A DNA stretch of 64,000 bases from a virus. Taxonomy: Duplodnaviria; Heunggongvirae; Uroviricota; Caudoviricetes. A model generated the notes under the pieces. That model ran no database searches and was not told where the DNA came from. It saw only the letters and a list, made by a program, of their open reading frames with translations. Both the position numbers and the translations under genes were made by a program. Below, piece by piece: positions 1 to 59,701 of the stretch. Location: the IMG/VR virus record IMGVR_UViG_2574180019_000006; one strand, 5' to 3'. Within the stretch, counting starts at the first letter, position 1. Every line of letters begins with the position of its first letter.

Positions 1-43
1 TTTTTCAAAATCGTTACAAAAAGAAGTCGATCCTGAGCAGTAC

Positions 44-1177
44 TTGGCGCTAAAGAATTTAGATGACAGCTCGGTTCATGCTATTGCCCGTGACGATATC
101 ATCTGCCCCATTTGCAAAGTTGGAGGTGGTTCGTTCGTTAGAGCCACTAGGAATGGTGGCTATCACAAGAAGGCGCATTTCAGATTTACCGGTGAAGATG
201 GTCAAGGCCATCATCCATCATGTGATTTCTATGGAGATAGATTAACATCTGAGGTGAAGCAGCACCTTGTCTCATTCACAAAAGATCGAACAAAGTATTC
301 GCAGGTAATACGAAAGCTGGTCTGTGCCGGCATACAGGAAGGGATATTTACTCAAGAAAAAATGTGGCAGATGAGGGAATGGTTCTTCAATAAGCGAAAG
401 GATTCCACATTTGAAATATGGTTAGAAAGCGAGCATTTAGACTGGCTTTATTATATTAGTGGGTTACGTGATGCATATCTAGCATGGACAACTCCTGATA
501 TTCTACCTTTCGCGCCCATTCAGGTTACTGTCCCTGGTTTTTCTTGGAGGCGTGCGATTGACAAAGAGGTGCTAAGAGTTCACATCAAGACTCTCCAGCA
601 ATTGCGTGAAATTTCAGTCTCACATAGTGACATTGCTGTAATCTTAGAACACATAAACAATAATCGTGACCGCACAATTCTCGATCCATCGCATTTGGAG
701 GACGAGATAAGTAAGACCTATAAGCTTACTAGTTTTGTGATGGGCAATTACATTGAGTTTCAGACAAAAACGGTTAGCGACAGAGCATACGGGGAAGCTA
801 AGTTTCTGGCATTTGCAGCACTTTTGTTGTTCGTGTCAGATTGGGACCTCAACATTGCTATTGGTAAGTTTTCTAAGATTGCCAGAGTGAAGGAGGTTGA
901 TGACATGCTGGCTGGTAATTTCATTGGTCTTAATCCTTACTTCCGATACGACCTGGCTAATGCAGTGAAGAGATTGCAGGATAACTGGCCGATTGAATAC
1001 CAAGAGTTGGAGCATTGGAATGTTGAGAAATCCATGCGTGACGCATATGAAAAGTGGCGTGCGACAGAGCCTGAATTCGCTCCACCCCTATTGCCAGACT
1101 TGTATATTGCCAAACATGAGAAAGAAGTCGCACAAGACGAGCAAGTCAGGCAGTGGATTAAGAACGGGGATGTTTGA
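44..1177 (+). CDS. hypothetical protein, Cys/His-rich N-terminus (CPICK...HHPSCDF); may be 5'-truncated by the window edge
   Basis: Long ORF; track start at 44 is a TTG and the frame is open back to position 2. No motif I can assign. Confidence 0.5.
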   Translation: MALKNLDDSSVHAIARDDIICPICKVGGGSFVRATRNGGYHKKAHFRFTGEDGQGHHPSCDFYGDRLTSEVKQHLVSFTKDRTKYSQVIRKLVCAGIQEGIFTQEKMWQMREWFFNKRKDSTFEIWLESEHLDWLYYISGLRDAYLAWTTPDILPFAPIQVTVPGFSWRRAIDKEVLRVHIKTLQQLREISVSHSDIAVILEHINNNRDRTILDPSHLEDEISKTYKLTSFVMGNYIEFQTKTVSDRAYGEAKFLAFAALLLFVSDWDLNIAIGKFSKIARVKEVDDMLAGNFIGLNPYFRYDLANAVKRLQDNWPIEYQELEHWNVEKSMRDAYEKWRATEPEFAPPLLPDLYIAKHEKEVAQDEQVRQWIKNGDV

Positions 1178-1319
1178 GTGTAATTAGCTTAATCAATCAG
1201 TTGATAATGGCGGTCACAATTTGATTCTTTTCTATAAGAATCCGTTGATCGCCACTACTCCCCTTCCATAGCTGCAATCATACCCTTAAATATCAATAGG
1301 TTATGGTTGTTTATACAAA

Positions 1320-2060
1320 TAAGAAAACAACTAAATAACAGATCAACGAAACGTCAACGCTTTCACCCGATTTGGTCTAAAAAATTGACGTTTTCACACA
1401 TCACTTCTTATACCCGTAACTCTACGCAGCAGACAGCGCCACAGCGTCCAATTTTCACCACAGACGACCCAACACACTACCAACAAAAACACACGCTCAA
1501 AATCGCTCCCGTTGCGTTACACAACCATATAAACAACTTATTTTCAGGCATAACAAAACAACTAAATAACACACATGCCATTCCCAAAAACAACCAACCT
1601 CTTTATGGCAGGCTACCGAAAAGACCCACCTCTTCTCCCCAGGCTACCGGACAACCAACCTAACTTTCACAGGCAATCCGAAAACATTCATACGCGCAAT
1701 ACCCACGACACGCCATTCCCCAAACAGCGAAGAAACACCAGAATCACTGAAACCCCAACGAAGCCTGTAACCGCAAGGATTCTCTCAATCCCAAAAGACA
1801 CGAAACATAACAATCACGGGAAATACCATTACCCAATACACGAATAACTACAAAAGCCTTTCACACACTCCAGACAAACAACTCAAACACAATAACGAAA
1901 GGAATCGCCCACCTGCCATTACTCCATACACGGAGAAGAACAATCACCAAAACGACGAGAACACCCCATAGAAGAACCACCGCAAAACGAACGAAACCAC
2001 ATACACCGACAGAGAGAACAACACACCCAATTCACCAACAGAAATAGTCGCCGTATAGAA
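1320..2060. other. A+C-rich, G- and T-depleted non-coding tract
   Basis: Sampled 60-nt lines contain about 5-9 G each by eye; track ORFs here translate to low-complexity T/P/Q/N/H strings with no RBS. Confidence 0.6.
1590..1695. repeat. three tandem ~30-bp direct repeats (AGGCTACCG...CCACCT family), copy 1
   Basis: Units caggctaccgaaaagacccacct / aggctaccggacaaccaacct / aggcaatccgaaaac; same family recurs at 5119-5207. Confidence 0.6.
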
Positions 2061-2246
2061 CGTTCTGGAAGGAGTGAGCATTAACGCCTATAGAGAGGTT
2101 GAGACAGATAAAAACAACATGTATAGCGAAGAAGCCAGGTATGTATAAGTGGGGAGGGAAGGAGGGGTGTCGCCTCCTTTTTCGTATTTATTCAACTCCT
2201 GATTTTATCCCCCCGTAACACCCCTACGGTCAGCCTTCGGTCCATA

Positions 2247-2390
2247 CAGGGAAAAGGTTGCATCCCGCTACAGAAACGGCTGGGTTGCCTTCGGGGAACG
2301 GCTGGGGATTTTCAGGGAAACGGTCGAGTTGCCTGTGTGGATTTCGGGAAAAGGCTCGATGCCGGTTCAGGAACGGCGGCGTACCGGTAT
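2247..2390. repeat. six tandem ~22-bp iteron-like direct repeats (C[A/G]GGGAAACGGCT family), copy 1
   Basis: Units cagggaaaaggttgc / cagaaacggctggg / cggggaacggctgggg / cagggaaacggtcgag / cgggaaaaggctcg / caggaacggcggcg; related array at 5770-5897. Confidence 0.65.
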
Positions 2391-2711
2391 AGCGAGAGGG
2401 AGAGTTGCGGCTACCCACCTGTAATGTGCGGGAAGAAGAGAGGCGCTCACGTAGGCGGACTTGCTTACCGCTGGATTCCCTCTGAATGCCCAGCTACAGC
2501 GTAATTGTGCCAGACAGCCAACGGGGCACAATCGATTTCAGTAGGTTTTTGGGGAGAGGATTACTCTGCCACCAGCCACTTTCGGCCACTAAATCAGAAT
2601 AATGTAAAAAGTGTACTCGGTACTGAACCTGAAAACTCACTGCCAAAACCACATTCACCGGAATAAAATCCTTTTTCGCCTGTGCGTTATTGCGATAATA
2701 ACACCAACAAG

Positions 2712-2726
2712 TAAACAACATGTTTA
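2712..2726. promoter_or_regulatory. AAACA-N3-TGTTT palindrome (operator-like) upstream of the 2758 gene
   Basis: taaacaacatgttta; member of a recurring motif family. Confidence 0.4.
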
Positions 2727-2757
2727 GACGTTATATAAACGAAGTGAGGATGAAGAG

Positions 2758-2976
2758 ATGATTAAGATGCCTGTGACGGTTGAGGTGTGGGGCGTGGATT
2801 CCCTGGCTGAGTGTCTGGATGCAGTGGGGCCGGAGTTGTACCGCAAGTTGTGGTCGTTCGTCCCGGCAGAAGGGGAATCGCCCAAAGGGAAGGATATCTG
2901 GCACCTGCTGAGTGAAGATGAAAAGCGGGAGCTGGTGGACGCGGTACACAGCGAGTTCCCGGGCGACGAAGATTAA
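2758..2976 (+). CDS. hypothetical small acidic protein
   Basis: ORF with a purine-rich stretch (aagtgaggatgaagag) ahead of the ATG. Confidence 0.45.
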   Translation: MIKMPVTVEVWGVDSLAECLDAVGPELYRKLWSFVPAEGESPKGKDIWHLLSEDEKRELVDAVHSEFPGDED

Positions 2977-3114
2977 GAGTGAGGCCACCAGCACGGTGGC
3001 TTTTGTCGCTATTAACCTCCGGGCAGCGCAGCACCGTAACGATATACTTTGTGGCCGTTTTCTTACTGGTATTATTTACGCAATTCAGAAAACAACATGT
3101 TTAAGGATTGCGTT

Positions 3115-3444
3115 ATGTTTGCAAATATCGACATCAACCAAATCAAGAAAATGACTCAAAAAGAGTTTGACCAGTTTTATGAGTTAGAAGGTTGGTCTTC
3201 CACGCTGATCAATTCGCGCTGGGTGCTTGAGCTGATGACTCGTGATGATGCTCCTGCTTTGATTATTTGCGACCTGGGTGAAGATGCTGACTTTATGGAT
3301 ATGAGCGAATTTTGTGTGGACACATACAACCGCAGCCAGAAGTACTACTTCACATGCGATAGCGAGAATGACGTTATTTCTAAGGTCTATCTTCACCTCG
3401 TCCAGCATTGGGACGTTCAGGAGTTTCTTGAAGTATTCGAGTAA
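3115..3444 (+). CDS. hypothetical protein
   Basis: In-frame ATG at 3115 with AAGGA 7 nt upstream; the track start 3049 lies inside a repeated upstream element. Confidence 0.55.
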   Translation: MFANIDINQIKKMTQKEFDQFYELEGWSSTLINSRWVLELMTRDDAPALIICDLGEDADFMDMSEFCVDTYNRSQKYYFTCDSENDVISKVYLHLVQHWDVQEFLEVFE

Positions 3445-3572
3445 CCCCAACCAAAGCCAGCATTGCTGGCTTAATTTCTCTATAGCCGCAGGGAAGAACC
3501 TGCATATCGCTCATGCGCCTGATCAATATGCTTTGTAGCCGTTTTCTTACTGGTATTATTTACGCCATTGAG

Positions 3573-3587
3573 AAAACAAGTTGTTTA
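3573..3587. promoter_or_regulatory. AAACAA-G-TTGTTT palindrome (operator-like)
   Basis: aaaacaagttgttta, 11 nt ahead of the 3598 start, inside a ~50-bp element duplicated at 3040-3110 and 3530-3597. Confidence 0.45.
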
Positions 3588-3597
3588 CGGAGTTGTA

Positions 3598-3909
3598 ATG
3601 AAAAAATCATTGGTTCTTGGTCTGGACAAAGACCAGAAGAGAAAAGAGAAGCCTGCGCTGGTTGCTCAATTAACTTTGCTGGACATCGTTGCCAATGGAA
3701 CCTCTATTCGTCTGTTCCGTGAAACAGCGGTGTCTTTCGATAAAAACACCTTTACTCGTTATGTAATGAATGTTCGTCGCCAGCGTGGAAAAGGCTGGGT
3801 GGCATTTCAAAGAATGTGGCCGGAACATCAGCTCGAACTGGCTTTGATGGAAGTTAACCGCGTGGCCCAGCAAGAGATTCAGAGAGCATCAGTGATGGCA
3901 ATAGCCTGA
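3598..3909 (+). CDS. hypothetical protein
   Basis: ATG at 3598 preceded by GGAG; track start 3568 is less likely. Confidence 0.55.
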   Translation: MKKSLVLGLDKDQKRKEKPALVAQLTLLDIVANGTSIRLFRETAVSFDKNTFTRYVMNVRRQRGKGWVAFQRMWPEHQLELALMEVNRVAQQEIQRASVMAIA

Positions 3910-3944
3910 TAATGTGCAAGTGGCAATTAGTCGACAGTACGACA

Positions 3945-3972
3945 GCCCCGCCATCCTTACGGGGCTTTTTTG
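3945..3972 (+). terminator. rho-independent terminator
   Basis: gccccg-ccatcctta-cggggc followed by a T run. Confidence 0.6.
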
Positions 3973-3976
3973 TATT

Positions 3977-3992
3977 GTAAGTATATACTTAC
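3977..3992. promoter_or_regulatory. perfect 16-bp palindrome GTAAGTATATACTTAC
   Basis: Identical 16-mer recurs at 24623-24638; about 45 bp ahead of the 4036 start. Confidence 0.5.
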
Positions 3993-4035
3993 GATCATAG
4001 AATATAAAAATAACCAAAACACTACGGAGAGTGAA

Positions 4036-4431
4036 ATGACCGTTAAACGCGAAAAACTGACAGTTGATGTTTACTATGCCTCTGAAACCGCCGAAGGTAA
4101 GAATGTGGCAAAAATTACCGTTGTTACGTACAACACCGAAACTGGTGCCGAAGTCCAGGCCAGTACGATCGTTCGTAAAGGTGATGCCTCCGGCGGCGAG
4201 TACGCGACTCAATACCAGTCCATTCTCGATGCAACTGACCCGCTGCTGCTGAAAATCGAGAACTACTTCCGCCAGGTTGATGAAGAGGTGTTTGAAACCA
4301 TGATGAATATGGTTAACACCGTATTCGCCTCCAGCCTGAATACCAACACTACCTGGATTGGTCAGTACGGCCTGCGCATTACCTCTGGCATTCCTGCCGA
4401 CACCTTAATCCCTGAAAGCGTATTCGCTTAA
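4036..4431 (+). CDS. hypothetical protein
   Basis: ATG at 4036 preceded by GGAGAG; followed by a terminator. Confidence 0.6.
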   Translation: MTVKREKLTVDVYYASETAEGKNVAKITVVTYNTETGAEVQASTIVRKGDASGGEYATQYQSILDATDPLLLKIENYFRQVDEEVFETMMNMVNTVFASSLNTNTTWIGQYGLRITSGIPADTLIPESVFA

Positions 4432-4440
4432 TCCTCTTTA

Positions 4441-4468
4441 AATGGCGCGTAAACCGCGCCATTTTATT
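4441..4468 (+). terminator. rho-independent terminator
   Basis: aatggcgcg-taaa-ccgcgccatt then ttatt. Confidence 0.6.
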
Positions 4469-4548
4469 AAGCCCGATAACAATTTGTTTTCTGCCTTATC
4501 TGATTTGTGAAAATGATTTCACTGAAGCAACTTAATAAGGAAACCATC

Positions 4549-4923
4549 ATGGGACTTGATATCTATATCGAGACACAGCCTAAAAACGATCTGAATAACG
4601 AGGCATCCAGAAAGCAGGTTGCTTACTTCCGTAAGTTCAATGCGCTCGTTGGGTGGATGGAGCGCAACGTAGGTGAAGTCGAAAATTGTGAGCTTTTAGA
4701 ATTAACGATGAATGACATTTGTTTTCTGAAGGCTCATTTGATGCACATAAACGAAAGTAATTGCGAAGAGTACTTGCCTACCCGGGAAGGTTTTTTCTTC
4801 GGCAGTCAGGAGTACGATGAAGGTTACTGGCATGATGTGGGGCAGTTGAAAGAGCTTGTGGAAGATCTGATTAAGAACCACGACTTTCACAATAACAGAC
4901 TGACCTTCTGCGCCTGGTGGTAA
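4549..4923 (+). CDS. hypothetical protein
   Basis: ATG at 4549 preceded by AAGGAAACC; track start 4507 lacks an RBS. Confidence 0.55.
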   Translation: MGLDIYIETQPKNDLNNEASRKQVAYFRKFNALVGWMERNVGEVENCELLELTMNDICFLKAHLMHINESNCEEYLPTREGFFFGSQEYDEGYWHDVGQLKELVEDLIKNHDFHNNRLTFCAWW

Positions 4924-4925
4924 AT

Positions 4926-5069
4926 ATGGGCGATTTCAAGAAACGCCTGAAGGAAAGAGCCGAGATGGTCAGAAAGCAAAACGCCTCTTCTGTCATCAGA
5001 TACGCAAGGCAGTTTAGTCGCAACAACAAATCAGTTGAGGAAAAGATCCTTAGCGTAATCGTGCGATAA
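4926..5069 (+). CDS. hypothetical small basic protein (47 aa)
   Basis: ATG overlapping the upstream stop (taaATGg); translated by hand; below the track length cutoff. Confidence 0.3.
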   Translation: MGDFKKRLKERAEMVRKQNASSVIRYARQFSRNNKSVEEKILSVIVR

Positions 5070-5118
5070 TTATTAAGGCCATCAGCATTGGTGGCCTTAA
5101 ATGACCATCTTGTTTCCC

Positions 5119-5207
5119 GCAGGCTAAAAACACCAACCTCTTACCTCCAGGCAACCGACAAACCCACCTGTTCCCGTCCGGCTACCGCAACTTTCCACTT
5201 TGACGCC
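5119..5207. repeat. three tandem ~30-bp direct repeats (AGGCTACCG...CCACCT family), copy 2
   Basis: caggctaaaaacaccaacct / caggcaaccgacaaacccacct / cggctaccgcaactttccac. Confidence 0.6.
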
Positions 5208-5273
5208 TTATTCGTACAACGATAATTAACACCAACAAGAAAACAATTTGTTATTTACGATAAGGAATTAATC

Positions 5274-5756
5274 ATGAATTTTATCGCTACTGTAAACGCA
5301 CCCGCACATGGCAATATCGCTGTAACGTTCTCTGACATTGAAAAACGAGTACTTGGTGCATGGCGCGACAATGAGACGGTAGAACTGTCAGCACAAGAAA
5401 AATGCATTATTGCACGCGACATCATTGGCAATCGTCGTTACTCGCGGGTATTTGAGAAAGCGTATGTGGTAAATTCTGGATTCGGAACGTTCGTCTTTCC
5501 GGTGCGCTCCGGGCGATTCTGCCAGTCCAAGCTGATTGAGTTCGCTACGCAGATTTCTTTCTGGATTAAAACTCAATCGTCGTTCAAATTTTCCGACGAT
5601 GAAGCAGTATCGCAGGGGATGCGGATCGCCAACAATGCAATTAAATGCAAAAACATTACGTATACCGCTGGCGTTGATACATGGAAACTGTTTTGCGCTA
5701 ACTTTATGCTGAATGTATACGCAAGCAACCGCATCCACATCCTTGATGGCGTGTAA
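5274..5756 (+). CDS. hypothetical protein (160 aa) lying between the two repeat arrays of locus 2
   Basis: ATG with AAGGA RBS; AAACAA-T-TTGTT palindrome 20 nt upstream. Confidence 0.6.
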   Translation: MNFIATVNAPAHGNIAVTFSDIEKRVLGAWRDNETVELSAQEKCIIARDIIGNRRYSRVFEKAYVVNSGFGTFVFPVRSGRFCQSKLIEFATQISFWIKTQSSFKFSDDEAVSQGMRIANNAIKCKNITYTAGVDTWKLFCANFMLNVYASNRIHILDGV

Positions 5757-5769
5757 CTGAGAAGAGGGC

Positions 5770-5897
5770 CAGAAACGGCCCTTTCTCTATAGCCACCAGC
5801 TGCCGCAGGGAAATTTTCAGAAACGGCGAGGAACGTATTCATGAGCCGACGGGGAACGGCCAGGATTTTTTCGGGAAACGGCTGCATTTGCCTTTGT
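5770..5897. repeat. iteron-like direct repeats (GGGAAACGGC family), copy 2
   Basis: cagggaaattttcagaaacggcgagg / cggggaacggccagg / cgggaaacggctgcatttgcc. Confidence 0.55.
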
Positions 5898-6362
5898 GTA
5901 GAAAAAACATCGGGAAGCTGGTGGAATCCAACCAGCGGTTGTCGGACAGGTGAGCGGGGAAAATTATGATGACTTTCGTCACCTGAGACATCCAGATTTC
6001 TTTCGTAGCATAATCACATACGTGATTAAGTGGTGTGATTATGTGAAAAATCACGCGCACATAATACGCGAGCGGATACGGAACAAAACAAAATGCCGAT
6101 CCGCGCCGACAAATAAACGCGGATCATAAAGCAAGACTAAAAGCCAATGATTAACTATGCGCTATAACGCGTTTTAAGCGCGTTAATGTGTTAAGTAATG
6201 GGTATGTACTGGCAAGGATATAAAAGCGCGTCTATGGCGTTATTTTGGCGCTTATTTTTATGTTGTTGGAGTGAGTTAAAGACAATAAAAAACGCGCCAT
6301 CAATGGCGCGTTATTGTGGAAGTATTGGAAACGAAAAAAGCGCCCATAGTGGGCGCTCGATT

Positions 6363-6593
6363 TTATTTGTGTAAACTGATTTTAAATCCCATTTCTACGA
6401 ACGCTTTTAACATTAAAAATATATCAGCGTCGTTCACGTCTGCTTTTTTTCGCTCCTGGTCGCTCAATAAGTCAATTTTGCGCGTCGTTTCATCTATAAG
6501 CTCGACTACACGCCCAGCGTAACCAGCGATCCCAGCGATGCGATTAACATAATATTCATTATGGACGTTAACGCCAGCGATAAGAACAAACAT
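6363..6593 (-). CDS. hypothetical protein
   Basis: ORF in an AT-rich minus-strand block; no motif. Confidence 0.4.
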   Translation of the reverse strand: MFVLIAGVNVHNEYYVNRIAGIAGYAGRVVELIDETTRKIDLLSDQERKKADVNDADIFLMLKAFVEMGFKISLHK

Positions 6594-6614
6594 GATTAAG
6601 CTCCTTAAAAAAAA

Positions 6615-6818
6615 TTAAATAGAATTTTGAAGTTTTCCGATTAATGCGCTTAAGCGTAAGTATTCACGTTTGCGCTTGCAATCTCGCTTGCTGTTAAGCA
6701 AATCAGAAAACGTAAAATTTAATTGGTCGCGTTGCGCGATCAAATCGTCGATTAATTCCAGTTTATAAGCGCGATAATTTGCGCGATATTCTGCGCGGAT
6801 CTTGTCATAGCTGACCAT
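6615..6818 (-). CDS. hypothetical protein
   Basis: ATG at 6818 with AAAGGAG RBS; the track start 6863 would place a hairpin inside the ORF. Confidence 0.45.
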   Translation of the reverse strand: MVSYDKIRAEYRANYRAYKLELIDDLIAQRDQLNFTFSDLLNSKRDCKRKREYLRLSALIGKLQNSI

Positions 6819-6866
6819 CTTTAAAGCTCCTTTAAAGCGCCCATTGTGGGCGCTTGATTCCATTAA

Positions 6867-7526
6867 TTACGCTTTAAAAGCATCAGCTAAATAATTGTAG
6901 AAATCATTCTTGATAAAGCGATATTGCTGTGTACCAGCTTTGGCGCTCCCAGCTCCTTTGACTTTTTCAACAAGTCCGAGACGTTCGCAAAGATTGATCA
7001 ACTGGTTGGCTTGAGTATAGCCAGCGTCCAATTTAATTTCACACGCTTTTTTAGCTTCATTCATTAAATCGAAAACAGCGCCATTGGTGAACGTGTCGAT
7101 CTCGTCGTTAATCATATCGATTAAAGCGAATACACGAGATCCAGACATATCAGCGATGGAATAAATGCATTTACCAGATTTAATTGATTTAACCAGATAA
7201 ACCAGTTTTTCCAGAGAATAACTATTAGTCATTGCATCACGAAAAAATACTTCTGGCGCTTGTTTGCTTGCTTTAATCGCATAGTAGAAAACAGAGCACA
7301 ATTTTTCGTCTTCTACAGCGTTTACAACGTTGTTGATGAAGTAAGCTAGTTTAGTGGTCGCAGCTTGCATATTTGCTTTGTCTGCTTTGGTGTGCGTACC
7401 ATTTTTATAATGTTCGTTATATGTTTGAGTTGCCAGATCTGCTTTTTCGCGCAGCTCGTCGGATACAATAGATGCAGCTTCAATGATGGACTTTTTAGAA
7501 ATGATAATGTTAGCCATGATGGACAT
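6867..7526 (-). CDS. hypothetical protein (219 aa)
   Basis: ORF, AT-rich, no motif. Confidence 0.55.
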   Translation of the reverse strand: MSIMANIIISKKSIIEAASIVSDELREKADLATQTYNEHYKNGTHTKADKANMQAATTKLAYFINNVVNAVEDEKLCSVFYYAIKASKQAPEVFFRDAMTNSYSLEKLVYLVKSIKSGKCIYSIADMSGSRVFALIDMINDEIDTFTNGAVFDLMNEAKKACEIKLDAGYTQANQLINLCERLGLVEKVKGAGSAKAGTQQYRFIKNDFYNYLADAFKA

Positions 7527-7812
7527 CCTTACGAAAAATTAAAATGAATTTATTTTTTACTGTCGTTAGCTAGCTCGCTTTCGACGAGTTCAATTATCGA
7601 TACGTGAAAAAAGATTGCAAGTATTTTTTTTAAATTTTCTGCAGGGATGAAAGTCCTAGAAATAAAAGCGAGATCGTCGAAGGTGTTCCCTAAATAAATA
7701 ATCAATTCGGGCCTTTAACCTTATATATTTATACGGAGTGGCATCGAAAGAGTTTTAAATGAATGGCATGTAAAATAATAACCGGACTTAGCCGGTTATT
7801 ACCCTTATAGAT

Positions 7813-8337
7813 TTAAAATGGAAGGATTCGTTCAACCCAATCGAAGAAAACAAGTATTTTTCTGCCGTCTTCTAACTTAAGAGTGACCTGGCAAGCATCA
7901 ACGCCTCTTGACACCCCTTCTATTTCACGACCGTCTGTCATGTAGACCCTTATAGATTGGTCGTTTTGATAAGCCTTGCGACATATCGCAAAAAAGTCAC
8001 GGCGTGATGGCTGATTGTCAACATAGTCTGGATGTATTGTTAGCCTACCTTTGAACTCGCGAGCAATGTCATCGATTACACCTGATTCAATTGTGCTAAT
8101 GCGCTCAAGTGGGAGTCTTATACGATTTTCTTTATCATATGGAATCGGGCATAAATCTAGCTTATTGCGTGAAGGCATTGTCCCCTGAACGTACATGCAA
8201 AACACCTGACCGTCTTCAAGCGTGACTCTTACAGGAATGTTGTTCTTCCGCCAGAACATAAGTATGTTCTCAGCATGTTCGTAGTCTCGCGGCCAGACTT
8301 CAGCCGGTATGCCGTAGGTGATGTCCAATGTTCTCAT
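7813..8337 (-). CDS. hypothetical protein (174 aa)
   Basis: ORF whose start overlaps the upstream gene end (8334-8337). Confidence 0.55.
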   Translation of the reverse strand: MRTLDITYGIPAEVWPRDYEHAENILMFWRKNNIPVRVTLEDGQVFCMYVQGTMPSRNKLDLCPIPYDKENRIRLPLERISTIESGVIDDIAREFKGRLTIHPDYVDNQPSRRDFFAICRKAYQNDQSIRVYMTDGREIEGVSRGVDACQVTLKLEDGRKILVFFDWVERILPF

Positions 8338-8933
8338 TCTGATACTCTTAGAGGTGTTTTCAGCAATCCAAATTTAAATTCTTTATTACCAACGACCAAG
8401 AAGGGGACTTCAACATAGATTTTTTTATCGACGGATTTAGAGTTCGCTGTTTTCTTGATGTCGCGAACGATACGTTTTGTTGTGTTTTCATCAATAAACA
8501 ATACCTTCCCACTGGTATTCCCTTCAGTCTTAGCATAAGTGACAATAGGTTCTTCATTGCCAACTCTGATGTTCACTTGGCAACCCGTTGTAGCCATTTC
8601 ATCACAATAGAGTGTACCGTCTTGAATTTCTAAAACAATTCCAGATGGCTTCATGGCCTCGTTAGAGCTTACATTAGCGTTTTCTGGTACTGCGGTCCCG
8701 TTAATTTGCAACCGTAATCTTTCTGTTCCTGCATGAAGTATTGTTTCTTCTGCGTTATCTGAGAATCTATACCAGACTGGTTGAATCAGACCTCGTGATT
8801 TGTATTTTAGTACGTCTTCAGAAGTATACATGCTGTACGTTTTTTGCATGTCAGAGACGAAATCTGATAATGCGTTGGCGGAAAACGCCGGGAGGCATAT
8901 ACAAGCAAGGAGTAACGAAAGTTTCATTTTCAT
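8334..8933 (-). CDS. hypothetical secreted protein (signal peptide MKMKLSLLLACICLPAFSANA)
   Basis: N-terminal signal-peptide-like segment; track start 8948 is TTG, so I chose the in-frame ATG at 8933. Confidence 0.55.
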   Translation of the reverse strand: MKMKLSLLLACICLPAFSANALSDFVSDMQKTYSMYTSEDVLKYKSRGLIQPVWYRFSDNAEETILHAGTERLRLQINGTAVPENANVSSNEAMKPSGIVLEIQDGTLYCDEMATTGCQVNIRVGNEEPIVTYAKTEGNTSGKVLFIDENTTKRIVRDIKKTANSKSVDKKIYVEVPFLVVGNKEFKFGLLKTPLRVSE

Positions 8934-8948
8934 ATCATGATAATCCAA

Positions 8949-9437
8949 TTATTTAACATCACACTTTCTAAGTTTTTCTATTTGTTCTAATTTTTCATGA
9001 TCATCATTTAGATTTCCTTTGACTATCTCCGTTTCAAGTTTGCTGATTAGCATGTTAAGTGCGTTGTAGTTATTGCATTTTACTTTGTAGGCGTAGTATG
9101 ACCTTGTCCCTGGTTTTTGTACACCCATATCATTAAAGTTAGAGCTTAAAGTATAACCTTCAAGTTCAACCCCTTTTATTGTTGGAAGAATTATATTTAA
9201 TGGTTCTAATTTAAATGGGTAGATATAAATATGTGATATGAAGTACTCTTCTGAAGAGATTTTCTTCATGTCTTTTGTGATTGAAACTGAATATTTACGG
9301 TCCCGAGCGATATAAAATTTTGTACATTTGTACGGCTCTAAGTTGAATAGATAATATCTGTCTTTAAAAAGAACATCTTTTCCATGTGATATTTTATGTC
9401 GTAAAGAGTTAATTATTTTGTTTATAGAAATACTCAT
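8949..9437 (-). CDS. hypothetical protein (162 aa)
   Basis: ORF, AT-rich. Confidence 0.5.
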   Translation of the reverse strand: MSISINKIINSLRHKISHGKDVLFKDRYYLFNLEPYKCTKFYIARDRKYSVSITKDMKKISSEEYFISHIYIYPFKLEPLNIILPTIKGVELEGYTLSSNFNDMGVQKPGTRSYYAYKVKCNNYNALNMLISKLETEIVKGNLNDDHEKLEQIEKLRKCDVK

Positions 9438-10495: not shown

Positions 10496-12055
10496 CTAAT
10501 CTCGTTTCAGAACTCCAAAATCGAATGCGCCATCAACAGGCAATACACCTTCTGCAAAGCCAGGTGTGGTGTCGATGATGTGTTTTCGCTCATAAGAGTG
10601 AGACAACAGGTATTTGTTGCTAATGTCAATGAAATCAGTGATAAAACACACGTTTGCCTGATTCTTCTTGGCTCGTAAGCCACGACCGACACGTTGTCTC
10701 ATTTCAACTTCTGCTTTCCCACCACCAGCAAGAATGACCGCACCAACGCTTGGCACATCAACACCGACATCCAGAATAGTCGAGCCTATTAAAACATCTA
10801 TGTCGCCAGACGCTAAACTGTTCAGCTTTGCTTGCCTTGTCGACTGGTTCGATTCCCCATAAATGAAGTCAACTCTAAGGCCGGACTCTTTCATCATTTC
10901 CATCAGGATTTGCCCGTGGCGTTTAAGACGAACCAGAGTCATACAATTGAGAGAATGTTGCTTATAGAGCAATGCTTCGCGAACAATGGCCTCATTACGT
11001 CCCAAATTATACACGATCCCCAACTGATAAGCCTTTTGGTAGGCAGTGCTCATACCTACTCTAAAATTGAGGTGTTTGTTGGCAAGTTCTGCCTTGATTC
11101 TGGTCTCGTCCGGCTTGTAGGCAACTTTATGATAAAGGAAGTATGGCTTTGCCAGAATGCCTCTATCAATCAGGTACTTTTCCGTGACTTTTATTTCAAT
11201 TCGCCCGGCCACTGCCATCAGACGCATGTTGGCTTCCGTAGAATCCTTCATGAACGGCGTTGCCGTAAGCGCCAGGCGATAGTCTGCGTTCGCACATAAT
11301 CTGGCAATGTCATAGAAATTAGAGCCTGAAGACTCATGCGCCTCTTCCAGAATAAGAAGAGAGACACTTGAAAGGAAGCGTTTCACCAAGTCCCGACGTT
11401 TGAGGTGGTAGCTCTTCTTATCTGGAGTTGCATCGCGTGGTGGTTCTTCAAGGAAACTTGCCAGAGTTTGAACTGTAGCGACGTTGATATGTCGTGATAC
11501 CTGGAACTCACCCGAGCCAATGACTCCAACCTTTTGGTCTTTTAACCACGGTTCGCCATTTTCGGCGCGGTAGTCGATGGATCTCTGGAAGTTTTCGGCC
11601 ATCTGAAACATCAGAACAGAGCGGGTTGTTAAAAATAATGTCATTCGACCGATACGTGCAGCTGCTTTGCAGGCAACATTAGATTTCCCGCCACCAGTAG
11701 CGATCTGCGCAATCATCATTCCCTCTCGAACCAGTGTTTCCACAGTCTGATCCTGATATGCATAATCAGGATTGTATGGGAATGGGTTGACCGCCGGATT
11801 TGGCTTTCCAAGCGCCGGAGCTTTGTCTTTGCGGATATGAACACATTTGATGCCCGCCTTGTTCAAGTTCGCCGCTACAGGCTTGGCAAAGCCAGCAGGG
11901 AACGAGTTTTTACTCCAGTTGAACATCGTGCTTGTGCCCTTCCAGTCGCCAGTCTCGACTTCGTAGCTCAACATCTGTTGCACCAGTTGCTTTACCTTGT
12001 CATCTGCGCCAGAAATAAGTGCATTTACTGCGTTAGATACAATCCGAACAGTCAT
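10496..12055 (-). CDS. superfamily 2 (DEAD/DEAH-type) helicase
   Basis: Walker A ATGGGKS, motif II LILEEAHE, motif VI QRVGRGLR. Confidence 0.8.
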   Translation of the reverse strand: MTVRIVSNAVNALISGADDKVKQLVQQMLSYEVETGDWKGTSTMFNWSKNSFPAGFAKPVAANLNKAGIKCVHIRKDKAPALGKPNPAVNPFPYNPDYAYQDQTVETLVREGMMIAQIATGGGKSNVACKAAARIGRMTLFLTTRSVLMFQMAENFQRSIDYRAENGEPWLKDQKVGVIGSGEFQVSRHINVATVQTLASFLEEPPRDATPDKKSYHLKRRDLVKRFLSSVSLLILEEAHESSGSNFYDIARLCANADYRLALTATPFMKDSTEANMRLMAVAGRIEIKVTEKYLIDRGILAKPYFLYHKVAYKPDETRIKAELANKHLNFRVGMSTAYQKAYQLGIVYNLGRNEAIVREALLYKQHSLNCMTLVRLKRHGQILMEMMKESGLRVDFIYGESNQSTRQAKLNSLASGDIDVLIGSTILDVGVDVPSVGAVILAGGGKAEVEMRQRVGRGLRAKKNQANVCFITDFIDISNKYLLSHSYERKHIIDTTPGFAEGVLPVDGAFDFGVLKRD

Positions 12056-46917: not shown

Positions 46918-47586
46918 ATGACCAAGATCTTTGTGGTTGGCGGCACAAAGGGCGGGCCTGGCAAATCCACCGTTGCCCAGCAAATTGCCGTTTGCCTGAA
47001 AGTCAAAAAGAAGAAGAAGGTTTATATTACCGATATAGATATTCAGCGCACGACAACGAGCTGGTGTGAAGACCGTCGACAGAACGAAGACCTTGAGCTG
47101 ATTCCTTTTGCATACGTTCAGGATGACATCATTAAGCATCTAAAATCGCTTCAGGGTAGAGCTGAGTTTGTAGTGGTAGATGCTGGTGGCTTCGACTCCG
47201 AAATTCAGCGACAAGCGATGCTGATGGCTGACGTTATCATTATCCCGCTGCGTCCTAAGCGTCGTGATTTGAAATCTTTACGTGACATCGATCCTATTAT
47301 CGACAATGTTCGCAATGTAAACGATAAAGTGAAGGTCCGCGCGGTCATGAACCAGTGCCCGGCTTTGCCATCACAAGTGTCTCGCATTCTGGCGGCTAAA
47401 GAGATTGTTGAGACGTTTGGAATCGAGTCTGCGCCAGTCAATCTATATAACCGCAACGTCTATGATGATGCGGAAGAGTCTGGTCGTTCTATCTTTGAAA
47501 TGACCGGTAGCGAGCGCGACAAAAAGGCGGAAGCCGAGTTTGAAGAATTTGTAGATTATCTGTTGAGTCTGGAGGAAGAAGAATAA
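46918..47586 (+). CDS. parA: ParA-family partition ATPase
   Basis: Deviant Walker A GGTKGGPGKST; small ParF/SopA-like size. Confidence 0.85.
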   Translation: MTKIFVVGGTKGGPGKSTVAQQIAVCLKVKKKKKVYITDIDIQRTTTSWCEDRRQNEDLELIPFAYVQDDIIKHLKSLQGRAEFVVVDAGGFDSEIQRQAMLMADVIIIPLRPKRRDLKSLRDIDPIIDNVRNVNDKVKVRAVMNQCPALPSQVSRILAAKEIVETFGIESAPVNLYNRNVYDDAEESGRSIFEMTGSERDKKAEAEFEEFVDYLLSLEEEE

Positions 47587-48075: not shown

Positions 48076-50655
<2,580 letters not shown>

Positions 50656-59141: not shown

Positions 59142-59216
59142 GATGGTGTAGCTCAGCGGTAGAGCAGTTGGCTGTTAACCAACTGGTCGGTGGTTCGAAT
59201 CCACCCACCATCGCCA
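59142..59216 (+). tRNA. tRNA-Asn (anticodon GTT)
   Basis: Cloverleaf folded by hand: 7-bp acceptor GATGGTG/CACCATC, anticodon loop CTGTTAA, T loop TTCGAAT, encoded CCA. Confidence 0.85.
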
Positions 59217-59218
59217 AT

Positions 59219-59294
59219 GCCGGTTTAGCTCAGTTGGTAGAGCGCCTGCCTTGTAAGCAGGATGTCAGCGGTTCGATCCCGTTAACCGGCACCA
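59219..59294 (+). tRNA. tRNA-Thr (anticodon TGT)
   Basis: Acceptor GCCGGTT/AACCGGC, anticodon stem CCTGC/GCAGG with loop CTTGTAA, T loop TTCGATC, encoded CCA. Confidence 0.85.
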
Positions 59295-59614
59295 ACACAA
59301 CAGGTAAGAGCATTGGGCGAATCGGCGATACTGACCCACAAGGCCGTAAATCGATAGAGTCAGACCAGTGCTCTTACCGTTGTGAGGAAGTGCAGCTCTT
59401 TGAAGCAACCAGAAGATAAGCATCTGGCTTCACAACACAACGATAAGATCATTACGGTTAATCGTCGTTCATGTGCACAATGACTGGTCGAAAGGTAGTG
59501 ATCTTACCGTTGTGATGAATGCACAGGCTGATGTGCCGCAACTACAGTAGTGCGCGCTTTGCGGGGCTTGCTACAACCCTGTGTCGGAGTTCAGCACCGA
59601 CCATCACAATAGCT

Positions 59615-59701
59615 GGAGAGTAGGGAGCATGGTGCTCAAGCGGTCTTGAAAACCGTCCCATTGCGCAAGCGATGATGGTTCGATTCCATTACTCTCCGCC
59701 A
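59615..59701 (+). tRNA. tRNA-Ser (anticodon TGA), class II with long variable arm
   Basis: Acceptor GGAGAGT/ACTCTCC, anticodon arm CGGT-CTTGAAA-ACCG close to the E. coli tRNA-Ser arm I recall, T loop TTCGATT; D-arm is irregular. Confidence 0.6.

Follow-up and report, generated by a model that had tools for sequence, protein, structure and literature searches.

Why would a phage-plasmid carry the same two families of short repeats, in the same order and orientation, at two places 3.5 kb apart, around a gene at one of them and around non-coding DNA at the other? The question is raised by positions 5119-5897 of a 64,000-nt stretch of Caudoviricetes DNA (IMG/VR virus record IMGVR_UViG_2574180019_000006; the whole stretch is called the window below), which belongs to a phage-plasmid of the SSU5/pHCM2 type. 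Phage-plasmids of the SSU5/pHCM2/pMT1 type are frequent in clinical Enterobacteriaceae; their plasmid replicon is known, and we found no description of the two repeat-bracketed loci in the literature searched. This two-locus, two-family architecture is real, conserved, and specific to SSU5-type phage-plasmids, and the two loci rank with the family's most constrained non-coding sequences. We tentatively read the arrays as phased binding sites in duplex DNA for a factor that the element itself would encode, marking both loci and thereby the ends of a block of early small genes. The identity of the binder would illuminate either the switching between plasmid and phage states or the start of lytic replication.

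Anatomy of the two repeat-bracketed loci

The original prediction held that this locus (locus 2) is a paralogue of an upstream one (locus 1), bracketed by the same two repeat families and duplicated as a whole. The bracketing is confirmed. When 1250-2500 is compared with 5050-5950 in a dot-plot (13/16 matches), 16 forward segments and no reverse segments appear, against a mean of 2.2 and a maximum of 5 segments in shuffled sequence; they form two co-linear blocks, 1585-1644/5124-5175 (family A) and 2244-2381/5816-5888 (family B), so that both families stand in identical order and orientation at the two loci, and the result of a repeat finder is consistent with this. The duplication of the whole does not hold, as the sequences inside the two loci show no relationship (local alignment score 20, null mean 19.6) and only the arrays around them are common to both. 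A profile of the 160-amino-acid (aa) protein encoded in locus 2 found no match in six-frame translations of locus 1 from six lineages, and a decayed copy of its gene in locus 1 is excluded by the DNA alignment together with this search.

Units of family A combine a left half, ACCnnCCT, with a right half, CnGGCnAnC. The locus 2 array (5104-5187, + strand) has three C-rich units, A1 at 5104-5127, A2 at 5132-5157, and A3 at 5162-5187, with right halves 28-30 nt apart; the array that had been predicted is therefore real but starts about 15 nt to the left of 5119, where it had been placed. At locus 1 the array spans 1593-1678 (+ strand) and again has three units (1593-1617, 1624-1648, and 1654-1678). 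Family B is G-rich, with the core GGGAAACGG and the consensus TTTyCrGGGAAAmGGC, and within its units T-tracts and A-tracts form pairs that are in phase. The locus 2 array (5806-5882, + strand) consists of B1 (5806-5813), B2 (5818-5827), B3 (5850-5860), and B4 (5871-5882), its cores being spaced by 33-34 and 22 nt, and a conserved tail reaches about 5905; one further copy of the core sits in the loop of the preceding terminator (5772). The locus 1 array (2249-2380, + strand) follows a terminator at 2156-2183 and has six cores, at 2251, 2273, 2295, 2317, 2348, and 2370, with spacings of 22, 22, 22, 31, and 22 nt in the window and in SSU5 alike. All units of both families are co-oriented with transcription, and the distance from A to B is about 600 bp at both loci. 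Across the 64-kb window, the two motifs cluster at these loci alone, with scattered single matches elsewhere. Tandem Repeats Finder did not detect the arrays of the window, whose units are too diverged, and reported the A array of one distant lineage (L127) as 36 nt x 3.8 copies at 92% identity.

The gene between the arrays of locus 2 (5274-5756, + strand; an open reading frame, ORF, of 160 codons) is real, as had been predicted, and conserved, and is an orphan of the family phrog_1641, which forms 21 clusters among 1.84 billion representative proteins. Its product matched nothing in a profile search, and its AlphaFold2 model (predicted local distance difference test score, pLDDT, 88.6) matched no known fold, so DNA binding by this protein is unsupported. 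Immediately before locus 2, the stem-loop AAGGCCATCAGCATTGGTGGCCTT (5077-5100, + strand), identified from the sequence and an alignment of relatives, ends an upstream 47-aa gene; in relatives its stem contains a Chi sequence (GCTGGTGG). Between the A array and the gene we predict a promoter of the sigma-70 type at 5199-5226 (+ strand; TTTGAC, a 16-nt spacer, and GATAAT). A simple promoter scan did not list it, but it shares homology with those of other small genes, at 3047-3101 and 3531-3585 (repeat family D2), and GCGATAAT is invariant across all lineages. The latter two promoters lie in a 77-nt promoter-operator module that occurs at 3031-3107 and 3515-3591, with 84% identity, ahead of two consecutive small genes.

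Between the -10 element and the ribosome-binding site lies the 13-bp palindrome AAACAATTTGTTA (5241-5253, without strand; AAACAA-N-TTGTTT), a predicted operator. It had been listed as a feature of this locus, and here the claim holds only in part: the palindrome is real, and it is one of 11 copies in the window with at most one mismatch, where 0.17 are expected (1531, 2713, 3090, 3574, 4477, 5241, 15658, 15683, 46870, 52210, and 63417). Every copy has the same position between a -10 element and a ribosome-binding site, including those ahead of the genes for TerS (15683), ParA (46870), and a helicase (52210). Because the 11 copies stand before many operons, the palindrome looks like an operator used genome-wide rather than a feature of locus 2.

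The hairpin after the gene is an intrinsic terminator (5764-5788, + strand), with a stem of 5764-5770 paired to 5777-5783, the loop AGAAAC, and a T-rich tail. The terminator-like hairpin of the original prediction is thus upheld as a + strand RNA structure by fold and by covariation (5764-5783): in 22 diverse sequences, 94.8% of the cells in the stem are paired, three of the seven pairs are altered on both sides, and G-U pairs are frequent, which makes the stem readable on the + strand only. Just ahead of the B array there is a Chi sequence on the - strand (5793-5800), kept in most lineages, and together with a + strand copy at 5917-5924 it forms an inverted pair that brackets the array. The window has 14 Chi sites where 2 are expected, five of them within 3.4 kb (2569, 2931, 2985, 5793, and 5917), and in relatives Chi is located in the stems of gene-end hairpins.

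At locus 1 the corresponding space has no ORF. About 0.8 kb (1385-2195) extends from a conserved promoter-like element near 1385-1415 (TTGACG, an 18-nt spacer, and TATACC, inside the inverted repeats GAAACGTCAA/TTGACGTTTTC) to the terminator at 2156-2183; in the window an A/C-rich part (G 12%, T 14%) makes up the first three quarters and a purine-rich part the last quarter. Across six lineages, the segment measures 766-882 nt, with 64-76% A+C in the first ~78%, 61-82% A+G in the last ~22%, and 7-21% T. Composition and length are kept and sequence is not, no ORF is conserved, and the indels do not come in multiples of three. Positions 1709-1950 hold 4-5 copies of a third repeat family (GCCATTACCCAATACACGGAGAAGAACA-like), which is confined to locus 1 and is also present in SSU5 and the distant lineages L035 and L127. 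The 3' halves of the two loci resemble each other beyond the extent that had been recognized, each having a G/purine-rich block, a terminator hairpin, and a B array in succession. In both loci and in all lineages examined, this block lies just ahead of the hairpin, for example, GGGGAGGGAAGGAGGGG at 2151-2167 in locus 1 of the window and GAGGGGAGGGG after the stop codon of the 160-aa gene in relatives.

The earlier argument that the arrays act together with the DNA they enclose is supported at locus 2, where they accompany the gene family down to about 30% protein identity; at locus 1 they surround the ORF-free A/C-rich stretch, so the arrays do not need the 160-aa gene between them. In lysogens of the Escherichia phage Cyrano, the orthologue of the 160-aa gene (CYRAN_111) is modestly expressed, at about 25 relative to a floor of 5, with its neighbours at the floor (CYRAN_110 at 7, CYRAN_112 at 5); CYRAN_102 reads 57 and CYRAN_103, the A/C-rich part of locus 1, reads 5, which is the floor (PMC9928086, supplementary table). 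The positions of the arrays match these expression boundaries.

Constraint on the arrays and their probable target

Region 5000-6100 is 98-99% identical to the Escherichia phages CMS-2020a, Cyrano (pLF82), and PhiR41_1 and about 79% identical to Klebsiella phage-plasmids, and locus 1 (1200-2700) occurs with 68% identity in Salmonella phage SSU5. A plasmid collection yielded 769 records with locus 2 and 839 with locus 1; 55 of the records that match locus 2 are from Yersinia (pMT1-type), as is none of the 839 with locus 1. Yersinia pestis plasmids of the pMT1 type (L008/L010; H54, H55) retain locus 2 and its neighbours and are missing locus 1. A truncated left part of locus 1 was also found in large IncFIB/IncR plasmids such as Klebsiella variicola pX39-1 (L126 5001-5740), adjoining a type I restriction-modification system and the insertion sequences (IS) IS903B/ISKpn26; we dismissed these partial copies as truncated recombination remnants beside IS elements.

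We sampled 66 copies of locus 2 with 57 unique downstream flanks from genomes and viral contigs. Compared with SSU5, Yersinia, and Buttiauxella, the window has 67-77% identity in the arrays, whereas the third codon positions of the 160-aa gene are 47-48% identical and its first and second positions about 80%; the arrays are therefore under purifying selection about as strong as that on the protein. Distant lineages (L035/L095/L117, L127, and L128), whose 160-aa proteins are just 30-50% identical, retain every part of the arrangement, from the A array through promoter, operator, gene, and terminator to the B array, and at least L035 and L127 among them also have a locus-1-like region. Within the B array, the last two units (CCGAAGGGAAACGG and TTTTCGGGAAACGGC) are almost invariant, and the spacing of the cores (33-34 and 22 nt) is found in 49 of the 57 unique sequences while the spacers themselves vary. 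The A array is more fluid: its period is 28-31 nt in most lineages and 36-38 nt in L127 and L128, exactly one 31-nt unit has been lost in L042, and L127 has a homogenized tandem array. When viral contigs were scanned with the motifs, the A pattern hit one contig and the B pattern 111 stretches (112 loci analysed), of which 64 adjoin the 160-aa gene, four (L021, L053, L084, and L108) are truncated or locus-1 copies, and the remainder are coincidental. Because these other hits are unrelated, the arrays are confined to the SSU5-type group.

What do the arrays bind, if they bind anything? Several observations favour duplex DNA. First, the 22 and 33-34 nt spacings, which correspond to about two and three helical turns, are kept while the spacers diverge, and the T- and A-tracts within B units are in phase. 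Second, the B array has no excess RNA folding and no informative covariation: the folding of 5757-5905 is no better than that of shuffled sequences (z = -0.39), the candidate hairpins of the array rest on invariant pairs, and a consensus fold finds the terminator only. On these grounds a structured RNA in the B region is unlikely, and no known RNA family was matched in Rfam at gathering thresholds or even at E <= 5. Third, at locus 2 the A array precedes the promoter. Fourth, the layout of the arrays is kept where the protein is only 30-50% identical, and the gain, loss, and homogenization of units are expected of functional repeat arrays.

On this reading, SSU5-type phage-plasmids would have a conserved cis-acting module in two copies, locus 2 being one of them, and each copy would consist of a short transcription unit between two arrays of sites recognized by their sequence. 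At locus 2 this unit would comprise the orphan gene, a promoter of its own, the genome-wide operator, and the terminator, with the A array on its 5' side and the B array just 3' of the terminator. The arrays would be putative iteron-like sites in duplex DNA for one or two proteins encoded by the element, whose loading in register may mark the two loci for a common factor. The recurrence of both families in one order and orientation, the constraint on the arrays, the expression boundaries at their positions, and a predicted winged-helix protein encoded next door are in keeping with this reading. Most likely the arrays would seat a nucleoprotein complex that acts as a boundary or in regulation at the two ends of the variable run of small early genes, possibly involving pairing or looping between A and B across the 600 bp that separate them at both loci; if the sites are indeed DNA, the chief alternative is that they act like an origin during lytic replication. 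The best candidate for the binder is probably the product of a neighbouring gene (6867-7526, - strand; phrog_1513), a 219-aa protein with a predicted N-terminal helical domain and C-terminal winged helix, which is restricted to SSU5-type elements and always convergent to locus 2.

Some features weigh against duplex DNA as the target. Family A lacks consistent helical phasing, since its period changes to 36-38 nt in L127 and L128. At locus 1 the A array is part of the ~0.8 kb of A/C-rich, T-poor DNA that has kept its composition and not its sequence, which points to a constraint on one strand, as RNA or as single-stranded DNA. The B arrays always come after a terminator, a position that would fit read-through RNA as well. 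An origin-like role, in addition, is disfavoured by the lack of a DnaA box or an AT-rich unwinding element nearby and by the different sequence of the RepA iterons elsewhere in the genome.

It is possible, if on the whole somewhat unlikely, that A and B are instead recognition motifs in transcripts, bound by an RNA-binding protein. A would then be carried by a ~0.8-kb noncoding RNA, poor in G and U and made from locus 1 in the lytic phase, and, at locus 2, by read-through from the upstream gene; B would be carried by terminator read-through or 3' untranslated regions (UTRs); and the binder would be host Rho, Hfq, or CsrA, or a FljA-like protein encoded at 7813-8337. The uniform orientation of the units along transcription, the steady length of the locus 1 segment and its conserved composition free of any conserved ORF, the terminators that form hairpins in + strand RNA, and an A period in L127 and L128 that is not a whole number of helical turns all agree with this explanation. 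However, the A/C-rich region is at the expression floor in lysogens, the promoter of locus 2 lies downstream of its A array, neither a folding signal nor an Rfam match was obtained, and spacings of 22 and 33-34 nt have no obvious meaning in RNA. The B regions do have 4.0-5.3 GGA per 100 nt relative to 1.4 in the window, a density that resembles sponge RNAs of the CsrB/RsmZ type, but a GGA site of the CsrA type leaves the invariant AAACGG of the B unit unexplained. A more specific version, which we consider unlikely, is that the ~0.8-kb RNA of locus 1 is a lytic sponge or decoy, deliberately unstructured and poor in U and G, for Rho, Hfq, CsrA, or the FljA-like protein, with similar platforms of repeated protein-binding sites flanking the mRNA of the 160-aa gene.

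The FljA lead rests on a gene (7813-8337, - strand) that matches the family of the repressor of phase-1 flagellin (PF03614, E = 3e-80), with a weak match to Hfq as well; it lies 2 kb away and is syntenic in several lineages. The gene is conserved even in Klebsiella phage-plasmids. Klebsiella is non-flagellate, and this occurrence suggests that the target is inside the element itself. The literature cited in PMC2652032 describes FljA as an RNA-binding repressor of flagellin mRNA. One 12-mer, TGAGCCGACGGG (5842-5853; L125 239-250), is common to the B array and the 5' leader of E. coli fliC, and it is the only 12-mer that this 5' UTR and the window have in common. The similarity to fliC reaches significance solely in the E. 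coli lineage (p = 0.006), with p > 0.17 in other lineages, and the 13.9-kb locus of L035, which ends about 1.1 kb past the 219-aa gene, contains no FljA-like gene. The 12-mer is thus lineage-specific and is not conserved where the FljA-like gene is, and we set aside the link to the fliC leader, keeping it as a weak lead.

Replication, recombination, and gene context

Could the arrays belong to a replication origin? As iterons of the element's own RepA they are excluded: the repeats of the repA region in Cyrano (of the ATCCACTATAGAGAG type) are unrelated to A or B, and these iterons flank repA, 33 kb from the arrays. Positions 1-9000 contain a single DnaA-box match (6042, - strand), no 60-nt window reaches 78% AT before 8941, and a search for an origin by GC skew was uninformative because the cumulative skew tracks gene orientation.

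A lytic origin of another kind deserves consideration. Loci 1 and 2 could be R-loop-type origins, like T4 oriF/oriG or ColE1 RNA II, in which a transcript ending in the G/purine-rich block before the hairpin would form a persistent RNA-DNA hybrid and the B array would recruit a replisome organizer, the two copies paralleling P4 ori/crr or SPP1 oriL/oriR. The block directly before the hairpin, at both loci and in all lineages examined, and the iteron-like B arrays that adjoin it are what such a mechanism would use. The phage-plasmid also encodes a T4-type replication and recombination set, namely a UvsW-like helicase (10496-12055), RNase H, UvsY, a gp32-like protein, a DnaB-like helicase, and a primase. 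Lysogens keep locus 1 silent, and it is missing from the non-phage pMT1-type plasmids of Yersinia pestis. Yet the absence of a DnaA box and an AT-rich unwinding element nearby and the lack of an origin signal in the GC skew speak against it, and since the 160-aa gene is expressed in lysogens its transcript would need to be barred from priming. Overall, we regard R-loop origins as improbable.

The surroundings of the arrays suggest another explanation. The order of genes is kept as a 377-aa gene, locus 1, variable rightward small genes, and locus 2, then the convergent leftward genes for 76, 82, and 219 aa and the FljA-family gene, and then the UvsW-like helicase, two ParB-N proteins, and the terminase. 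In annotated relatives, each gene in the stretch of the two loci is labelled hypothetical. The variable gene content between the loci suggests cassette-like turnover. The repeats might be conserved linkers through which homologous recombination swaps small early genes, with no binding factor at all, much as T4-type phages have promoter/stem-loop cassettes. Close relatives indeed differ in the genes they carry between loci 1 and 2: an additional gene stands before locus 2 in Cyrano, and a reverse gene interrupts the region at unit A1 in SSU5 and Buttiauxella. Promoter-operator modules are repeated with 84-91% identity, five of the 14 Chi sites of the window fall within 2569-5924, some of them in gene-end hairpins, and the Klebsiella match to locus 2 is bounded by the arrays. 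Nonetheless, conservation of the core motifs and of their spacing goes far beyond that of synonymous sites, even where the protein is 30% identical, and linkers need no such conservation; moreover, the arrays occupy two fixed positions only and do not separate all cassettes. Linkers without a binder are therefore a quite improbable explanation, and binding sites in duplex DNA at the ends of the variable block continue to be the reading that we tentatively prefer.

Other parts of the window may be of use to studies of this family. The 377-aa protein upstream of locus 1 (44-1177, phrog_12525) has no Pfam match and has a cysteine/histidine motif, CPIC...HHPSC, which appears to resemble the zinc finger of CoiA-type nucleases. 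A DDE transposase gene (PF13701) followed by a class A beta-lactamase gene is inserted at 48262-50655, after the ParA gene and before the helicase module, and the phage-plasmid is therefore a carrier of a resistance gene. A cluster of tRNA genes at 59142-59701 comprises those for Asn, Thr, and Ser.

Comparison with known systems

Iteron arrays lie on both sides of a plasmid rep gene in the P1 oriR-repA-incA and F ori2-repE-incC modules, and these offer one parallel: in both cases direct repeats of ~22 bp flank a small gene of a low-copy plasmid prophage, and the copy number of the units varies among relatives. The B cores have the helical-register spacing of such repeats, which family A fits only partly. 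Here, however, the two arrays belong to different families and are not the element's own RepA iterons (ATCCACTATAGAGAG type), the enclosed 160-aa protein is neither Rep-like nor a winged-helix initiator, and DnaA boxes and an AT-rich element are absent. The split origins P4 ori/crr and SPP1 oriL/oriR, with their duplicated sets of repeats, share with our loci the presence of the same repeat families at two places a few kb apart, one in or beside a gene and the other in non-coding DNA. They differ in that here there are two repeat families, each at a fixed position relative to a transcription unit.

The A array with the 160-aa gene also recalls the type III toxin-antitoxin loci ToxIN, CptIN, and TenpIN, in which repeats of 30-38 nt stand immediately upstream of a gene for ~160-170 aa on a mobile element. 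Could they form such a toxin-antitoxin or abortive-infection pair, with a repeat RNA as the antitoxin? The tandem repeats of 30-38 nt in 2-4 copies directly upstream of a ~160-aa protein (36 nt x 3.8 copies in L127) and the expression of the gene in lysogens of a plasmid-phage would fit a ToxIN-like pair. But a promoter and operator, rather than a terminator or hairpin, separate the repeats from the gene, the A units are so poor in G that pseudoknots are unlikely, and the protein is unrelated in sequence and fold to ToxN, CptN, and TenpN. Locus 1, in addition, has an A array without the gene, and the second repeat family downstream is left unexplained, so that we consider a toxin-antitoxin pair highly improbable.

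Partition systems such as pB171, in which the centromere arrays parC1 and parC2 flank the partition operon, and TubR-tubC also invite comparison, but our loci have no partition NTPase, the ParA gene being 41 kb off at 46918, and locus 1 is missing from the Yersinia pMT1-type plasmids. Finally, the palindrome taken by itself resembles the dispersed operator regulon of the C1 repressor in the plasmid prophage P1: in both, one short operator is repeated before many operons across the genome, and in the phage-plasmid described here that operator would be a 13-bp palindrome set between the -10 element and the ribosome-binding site.

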